Source: Chlamydiales bacterium (GTDB taxonomy: Bacteria > Chlamydiota > Chlamydiia > Chlamydiales > JBDQID01). Taken from it: a stretch of 19,985 nt of DNA. Below the pieces are notes generated by a model. The model was not told where the DNA came from and did not search any database. It saw only the letters and a program-made list of their open reading frames with translations. The stretch lies in NCBI GenBank assembly GCA_047611865.1, contig JBLFWS010000053.1, forward strand, positions 1-19,985. The letters run 5' to 3'. Both the position numbers and the translations under genes were made by a program. Of this stretch, positions 7,327-7,768 are shown in pieces (within the stretch, counting starts at the first letter, position 1; every line of letters begins with the position of its first letter).

Positions 7327-7768
7327 GGGTGCAACTTTAAGTGGTGGTGAATTATTTTTTGGGAAGTTCTAACTTCAGATCGTACTGCAATTTCAATTTG
7401 TAATAAGTGAAACGAAAAATTTTTCTGAAGCGCCAGAGGCGTGGCATTATGTAGGCAGGGTCGAATCCGAGCGTAGCGAGAGACAGGGCCGGTATTTCTG
7501 GTTTGTATAAATTATATTGAGCTGCGGCAGGTGCGACACTTACAGAATTGCCGCACCTGACCGGTGCTCCATTAGTATCGAGATCCATTTTACAGGGCCT
7601 GTCTCTCGCTCCGCTCGGATCCGACCCTGCCTACATAATGCCACGCCTCTGGCGTTTATGAAGATTTAACCTATTCCTCGTGAACGGTTTCCTGGATTCC
7701 TTTGGGGAATAATCTCGTTATGCGTTTTTACTTAAAAAAATAATTCACCGCCACTTAAAGTTGCACCC
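7327..7768. mobile_element. 442-bp non-autonomous element (MITE-like) with nested inverted repeats
   Basis: 34-bp terminal inverted repeats at 7327-7360 and 7735-7768 (1 mismatch). Flanking direct repeat GTACAGGG(T/C) at 7318-7326 and 7769-7777. Inner 67-bp inverted repeat at 7428-7494 and 7591-7657 (5 mismatches). Central hairpin at about 7519-7569. No transposase ORF. Confidence 0.9.

Follow-up and report, generated by a model that had tools for sequence, protein, structure and literature searches.

The locus examined here raises the question of how a palindrome of 442 bp came to combine terminal inverted repeats and flanking duplications of the kind left by DDE transposition with inner hairpins that recall the repeats acted on by HUH transposases. 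The stretch of DNA that was analyzed, referred to as the window (19,985 nucleotides), is contig C53 of a 3.59-Mb draft assembly of a Chlamydiales bacterium that comprises 272 contigs and is 95.5% complete. Other contigs of the assembly also are denoted by C, and loci elsewhere by L. The element lies within the 671 bp that separate a TPR gene (6047-7150) from a DUF2061 gene (7822-8466); both genes are on the same strand. It contains no open reading frame of ≥80 amino acids, and no promoter or terminator was found by scanning its interior. The best explanation, to which we assign a probability of roughly three in four, is that the palindrome is a gene-less MITE of ISKra4 type, likely moved in trans, that carries as cargo what are likely the ends of a subclass 1.2 Y1 transposase element without its gene.

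Architecture of the palindrome

An earlier note on this DNA described three concentric inverted repeats with a common centre near 7543-7548. The common centre was borne out, with values of 7547.5 for the outer arms, 7542.5 for the inner arms (7428-7494 and 7591-7657, identical at 62 of 67 positions) and ~7544 for the central hairpin. The outer arms, the flanking direct repeats, and the GTAG motif and CGCC-AGA-GGCG hairpin of the inner arms also are present as described. The third layer was not upheld: the central hairpin arises where two ~115-bp units overlap at their tails, and the palindrome has two layers rather than three (Table 1). The word TACAGGGCC does occur both at 7591 and at 7770. 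This sharing is most likely coincidental because the copy at 7770 belongs to the target site, and the targets of the other six copies with both ends are unrelated to that in the window.

Table 1. Features of the palindrome and its borders (positions in the window).
Feature	Position	Strand	Basis or remarks
Left target-site copy	7318..7326	+	9 bp; 8/9 against 7769-7777
Left terminal inverted repeat, putative ISKra4-family type	7327..7360	+	33/34 against right repeat; 19/21 first bases as in the IS ends of L029
Left MITE spacer	7361..7426	.	Strong matches in family copies only
Left unit (L type), probable end of a subclass 1.2 Y1 element	7427..7541	+	Unit profile; Y1-end model E 0.57
Parts of the L-type unit			Hairpin 7430-7442, 10 nt, TAG 7452-7454, GC palindrome, A/T spacer, tail hairpin 7519-7539
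Centre of 8 bp, would-be place of a Y1 gene	7540..7547	-	TAA on minus strand directly against tail
Right unit (R type)	7548..7658	-	Y1-end model E 0.087; stem types
Parts of the R-type unit			Design as L type; spacer differs; compensatory change in palindrome stem
Right MITE spacer	7659..7734	.	Matches and protein comparison
Right terminal inverted repeat	7735..7768	-	33/34 against left repeat
Right target-site copy	7769..7777	+	9 bp; 8/9 against 7318-7326

The inner arm belongs to a directional unit of ~115 bp, of which it forms the head. The unit consists of a 5-bp hairpin, 10 nt, TAG, a GC palindrome, an A/T spacer and a tail hairpin. A profile of the unit produced 69 matches in the genome, 45 of which were anchored by the head motif. 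TAG is present in 42 of 43 distinct units, and the palindrome stem spans 5 bp with a long structured loop. The window contains two unlike units arranged tail to tail and 8 bp apart. The head motif was confined to this genome among 401 Chlamydiota genomes, and none was detected in metagenome or viral contigs.

At window positions 7488, 7499, 7548, 7664, 7707 and 7718, contigs of three DNA runs mostly carry the family letter; the letters of the window at these sites are either private changes or assembly errors. Further intergenic inverted repeats are located at 8462-8625 and 16524-16596 with arms of 36 and 28 bp, respectively, and the latter resembles 7173-7197.

The outer layer is a multi-copy MITE

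BLAST searches with the two ends, in which matches of ≥45 bp were counted, identified 18 left ends and 13 right ends in the chlamydial genome. There are about twenty dispersed copies in total, four of which are full-length (441-444 bp, 96-97% identity), and several half copies terminate at contig ends. Read-derived contigs of three DNA runs stacked several- to fifty-fold over the element. All seven copies with both ends on one contig are bordered by their own, differing duplication of 7-10 bp, with matches of 8/9 in the window copy, 9/9 in C32, 9/9 in C30, 8/9 in C51b, 10/10 in C51a, 9/10 in C47 and 7/7 in C70. The duplications measure 9 bp in four copies, 10 bp in two and 7 bp in one, and so lie partly beyond the published range of 8-9 bp. 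The earlier proposal of DDE-type terminal repeats with target duplications is corroborated by these copies, and the outer part of the palindrome is a gene-less multi-copy MITE.

No joint that skips the element was present in contigs of four DNA runs, and no empty site was found among seven ortholog loci, at which gene order is not conserved. Searches for the full element in 60 relatives gave two short matches only, and those in a plasmid collection gave 14 matches at chance level. The region C51:17484-19161 is a four-deep nest in which the MITE contains an IS-like element with an 8-bp duplication, the IS-like element contains a broken Y1 gene with its ends, and a further small element resides in the right end repeat.

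The core is carried as cargo

The L- and R-type units in the genome, 24 of 24, lie inside the flanks of this MITE, and therefore the core now travels as cargo. Among the other units, 18 of 21 (18 of all 45) are outside this MITE, several of them within a second MITE family whose end repeats differ. The earlier note had proposed a composite, non-autonomous element that combines two architectures. A DDE-type exterior with an HUH (Y1)-related doublet inside was found, but the canonical RAYT partner was not sustained, and neither was the dual use, as the L/R doublet was never seen outside the MITE. Co-occurrence of the inner and outer parts likewise holds in one direction: L/R units always reside in the MITE, but the MITE copies C47 and C51b lack the core.

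These core-less forms, in one of which (C47) a single hairpin stands in place of the core, might be taken as signs of a core that remains active as a REPIN-like doublet, still excised and inserted by a Y1 enzyme, which would make the palindrome a composite with two modes of movement. The presence in the genome of an intact subclass 1.2 Y1 gene (C24) and of units outside this MITE would agree with that interpretation. Nevertheless, we consider it unlikely: the two core-less junctions differ and each is at a short direct repeat, C47 possesses diagnostic bases that are those of the core-bearing copy C97, the ends that belong to the C24 enzyme differ in sequence from the window units, and no free unit was found among the 24 of L or R type. 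C47 and C51b are read as probable core deletions, with an empty ancestor as the less favored possibility, and the core as cargo of the MITE.

The core is unstable in other copies, in which it has been deleted, converted from arm to arm (C153 and C32), swapped with sister units or interrupted by an intron. A group II intron (RF00029, E 2.9e-4, below the gathering score) starts immediately after the tail hairpin in each of C61, C83, C153 and C254. As judged by eye, the group II intron starts that were found all follow a hairpin-like word (10/10); these 5′ ends lie immediately after small hairpins that are followed by GACA or GGCA in C9, C20, C36, C61, C66, C70, C83, C97, C153 and C254. The second MITE family, which is represented by C103:6515-6980 and on about 14 other contigs, has different end repeats and two sister units head to head. 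A hybrid at C126:8755-9078 joins the left end of the family described here to a sister unit and to the right end of the second MITE family.

Relation of the hairpin unit to subclass 1.2 Y1 transposases

A metagenome scan with the tail motif recovered at least 120 loci, 40 of those listed having short flanks. Among the loci listed, one viral locus included, a loose test detected a unit-like upstream design at 27 of 121, and a Y1 transposase gene was situated directly behind the tail motif at 2 of 121 (L097 and L139). The products of these two genes are 44-46% identical to that of the Y1 gene on C24, and units facing inward are present on both sides of each gene. The stop codon of the L097 gene directly abuts the tail, as does the TAA on the minus strand in the 8-bp centre of the palindrome; this resemblance, a single example, is no more than suggestive.

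Thirty loci were picked with the C24 protein alone, for which 33 of 301 genomes gave matches. Of 60 chlamydial Y1 gene ends, 21 had the unit design in inward orientation and none had it facing outward, as assessed with a pattern that was written after both sets had been seen. The same pattern matched none of 1200 shuffles, 6 of 3000 pieces drawn at random from genomes and 20 of the 45 units in the genome; the two units of the window fail owing to point changes. A covariance model intended as a more independent test was built solely from the 21 passing Y1 gene ends. In this model 16 of 19 pairs covary, a proportion that is inflated by the selection of passing ends. When applied to the window, the model placed both units with the correct strands and borders and ranked the right unit second and the left unit fourth of 17 matches, the two being separated by an unrelated match (E 0.19). 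Genome-wide, with 150 of 844 candidates scored, the model recovered sister units in C103 (E 2.4e-4), C254 (0.0019), C126 (0.007) and C23 (0.0079), these E-values being rough. The modeled link to Y1 elements is weak for the arms of the window itself and stronger for their sister units.

The partner proteins contain Y---Q--HH in 31 of 33 cases, which is the signature of TnpA-Y1 subclass 1.2 (Quentin et al., 2018; PMC6006769). In the accessible part of that publication the subclass is without REPs and, as a rule, without terminal structures, and its activity is left unexplained, whereas 21 of 60 ends here have a three-hairpin design. The constant letters of the matching Y1 ends are AGCC and not GTAG. 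The canonical GTAG REP/RAYT pairing suggested by the earlier note is not supported, as the matching ends flank subclass 1.2 genes; nor was a RAYT flanked by the inner arm found, the single Y---NP gene in the genome (C112) having unrelated ends. The genome contains five Y1 matches, and the gene on C24 is an intact member of subclass 1.2.

Gene-less facing doublets of other Y1 ends were observed both in this genome (C18, C30 and C100) and in L116. Overall, the inner doublet is likely to represent a subclass 1.2 Y1 element that lacks its gene and is reduced to its two facing ends. No Y1 gene was found between units with the exact sequence of those in the window, and the full unit was not found elsewhere. 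A Y1 query against viral contigs yielded nothing confirmed, and the unit profile based on sequence alone missed both the Y1 ends (best E 0.2) and the metagenome units (best E 0.009).

Alternatively, a single hairpin unit could have been duplicated locally and in inverted orientation as the DNA was replicated, which would have generated the core with no involvement of Y1 ends. The likeness of the two arms fits this scheme, as do the conversions between arms in C153 and C32. It is nonetheless very unlikely in view of the A/T spacers and tail hairpins of the two window units, which are unrelated in sequence, the palindrome stems that differ by compensatory change, and the fact that facing pairs of unlike ends are the normal state around Y1 genes. 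Two Y1 ends brought face to face remain the favored origin of the core.

Comparison with other doublets places the core among known designs with certain departures. Like REPIN/BIME elements, which are doublets of GTAG REPs associated with class 2 RAYTs, it comprises two inverted units that form one long hairpin and has TAG before a GC stem. In contrast, the units here are ~115 bp in length with three hairpins, the partner signature is not Y---NP, and the core does not occur free in this genome. TIRtrons with their TIRYTs have double palindromic TIRs and also occur as dimers (Di Nocera et al., 2013; PMC3733652). Judged from the text description in that paper, they share with the present case inverted ends that are long and self-complementary on either side of a tyrosine transposase gene and the occurrence of singles and dimers, whereas the dimer described here has lost the gene and lies inside a DDE MITE. 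The three-hairpin design may already be contained in Figure 9 or file S5 of the same paper, which is considered here from its text.

Doublets without a gene and of the C24 type, which are REPIN-like and about 200 bp in length, are located at C18:10520-10717, C30:5903-6102, C100:8214-8412 and C14:12741-12927. The best match to the Y1-end model in the window is at 649-738 on the plus strand (E 4e-5), in the vicinity of a transposase-like HTH fragment (120-485) and three 17-bp repeats (576-638). A piece similar to 649-738 is inserted in the MITE copy on C97.

Outer ends resemble those of ISKra4-family elements

A scan for the exact end repeat in one genome per species identified 29 loci in MAGs of Chlamydiales, Chlamydiae and Chlamydiota, and six of the loci were examined. 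In L029 the repeat bounds an IS of 1,429 bp with two overlapping open reading frames, and the IS ends agree with the MITE end repeat at 19 of 21 bases. The larger reading frame matches the ISKra4 model NF033572 over model positions 72-422 (E 1.7e-53; 182 bits, which is below the cut-off of 205) and also matches UPF0236. A transposase bounded by the outer repeat, for which the earlier note had proposed a search, thus exists in L029 as an ISKra4-like protein, and none was found in the draft assembly that contains the window. Similar ends, together with duplications of 9 bp, were seen in the relatives L059 and L082, and similar ends occur on many ISKra4 relatives. Relatives were found in 27 of 300 genomes of the order, the present genome not being one of them. 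Among viral contigs the end-repeat pattern occurred at four loci, none with an ISKra4 gene.

ISKra4-family elements have inverted repeats of 18-39 bp and direct repeats of 8-9 bp, and the ISMich2 group has a two-ORF layout with a -1 frameshift (Guerillot et al., 2014; PMC3942029). Against the family (p-MULT 4) and its ISMich2 group as presented in the accessible portion of that article, the MITE is similar in that its 34-bp end repeats end in C, its duplications centre on 9 bp, and the partner IS in L029 has two ORFs in a -1 arrangement. It differs in having no transposase gene and in bearing a hairpin doublet, and the phyla listed there for p-MULT 4 do not include Chlamydiae. Taken with the match of the ends, these features identify the outer layer as an apparent ISKra4-type MITE that was likely moved in trans by a DDE transposase of the ISKra4 family. 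Bacterial MITEs that fold or bear cargo, such as IMU, in the portion of the account by Delihas (2011; PMC3184786) that was available, similarly are gene-less, share end repeats with IS elements and are moved in trans, whereas the cargo here is the ends of another element and not a gene.

The absence of the partner enzyme from the assembly and the variable length of the duplications could suggest that the outer ends derive from another DDE family and that the ISKra4 match is incidental. This derivation is highly improbable when set against the agreement with the L029 ends, the still longer match to an end in L008 that lies behind an ISKra4-like C-terminus, and the breadth of ISKra4 relatives with similar ends. 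An ISKra4-type origin of the outer ends is retained.

The right spacer of the MITE appeared by eye to be a plausible remnant of a transposase tail. This candidate was rejected: the best DNA p value was about 0.02 among 22 comparisons, and scores as high as that of the spacer against transposase C-termini at the protein level were attained by 1449 of 2000 random pieces, leaving an origin in the parent IS unsupported. A distinct MITE of 115 bp at C37:14851-14965 has an end repeat of the L029 type and a 9/9 duplication, and a lone end related to it is present at C6:363.

The long rod and the unit stems

The earlier prediction that the whole region could fold into one rod is confirmed in that its DNA folds at -141 kcal/mol compared to a shuffled mean of -54.7 (z -17.6), with 0 of 100 shuffles as good. 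Each unit of the window alone folds no better than shuffles (z 1.06 and -1.00). Three types of palindrome stem, related by compensatory changes, are represented by 18, 5 and 4 of 41 units, and 185 of 205 stem cells are Watson-Crick versus 164 in shuffles; 0 of 2000 shuffles reach this value, which is not expressed as a probability since the units are related. Of the 19 arm-to-arm differences in the four full copies, 13 leave the long rod mispaired on both strands. Because the stem changes are compensatory and these rod differences are true mismatches, the constraint acts on the stem of each unit and not on the rod, which results secondarily from one pair of inverted ends being nested within another. 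The structured-RNA role raised previously, or more broadly a cellular role for a rod selected as RNA or DNA and spread by the MITE, is scarcely credible despite the great stability of the fold and its position between two same-strand genes, as there was no Rfam match in 7000-9000 at E up to 1, the rod differences mostly are true mismatches, covariation is inside each unit, and the core often is deleted or interrupted.

Assembly of the composite and its significance

A course of events can be reconstructed from the copies, target duplications, end match, unit anatomy and core confinement documented above. A Y1 element or a gene-less doublet would have come to lie within an ISKra4 derivative, the gene between the two Y1 ends would have been deleted, and the composite would have spread as a single piece via DDE transposition. 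The palindrome accordingly is a nested relic of two known kinds and not a new machine, and such nesting is common in this genome. No publication on this combination was found in a search of the largely open-access literature.

A side result concerns subclass 1.2 itself, which is without REPs in the accessible part of its published description (PMC6006769) and here has conserved structured ends. Defined candidate DNA substrates for subclass 1.2 Y1 transposases now are available, and the substrate question is directly testable because the intact C24 enzyme and its own ends are in the same genome. One hairpin unit moreover links otherwise unrelated mobile elements, namely the two MITE families, the C126 hybrid and the group II intron. 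A bolder and rather doubtful proposition is that subclass 1.2 enzymes form a REPtron-like class that has been overlooked, whose three-hairpin ends give rise to doublets without a gene, and that these ends act as a shared hub in this genome, being captured by two unrelated DDE MITE families, exchanged between the families by recombination, targeted by a group II intron and still cut by a Y1 enzyme. The composite then would possess both DDE and single-strand mobility.

Towards the end of the window, an open reading frame on the minus strand (18896-19921) gave no Pfam match, and a 126-bp repeat of 87% lies downstream at 18211-18336. The reading frame has what we take to be an RHS-core-like motif, and its arrangement with the repeat presumably is that of orphan rhs modules.
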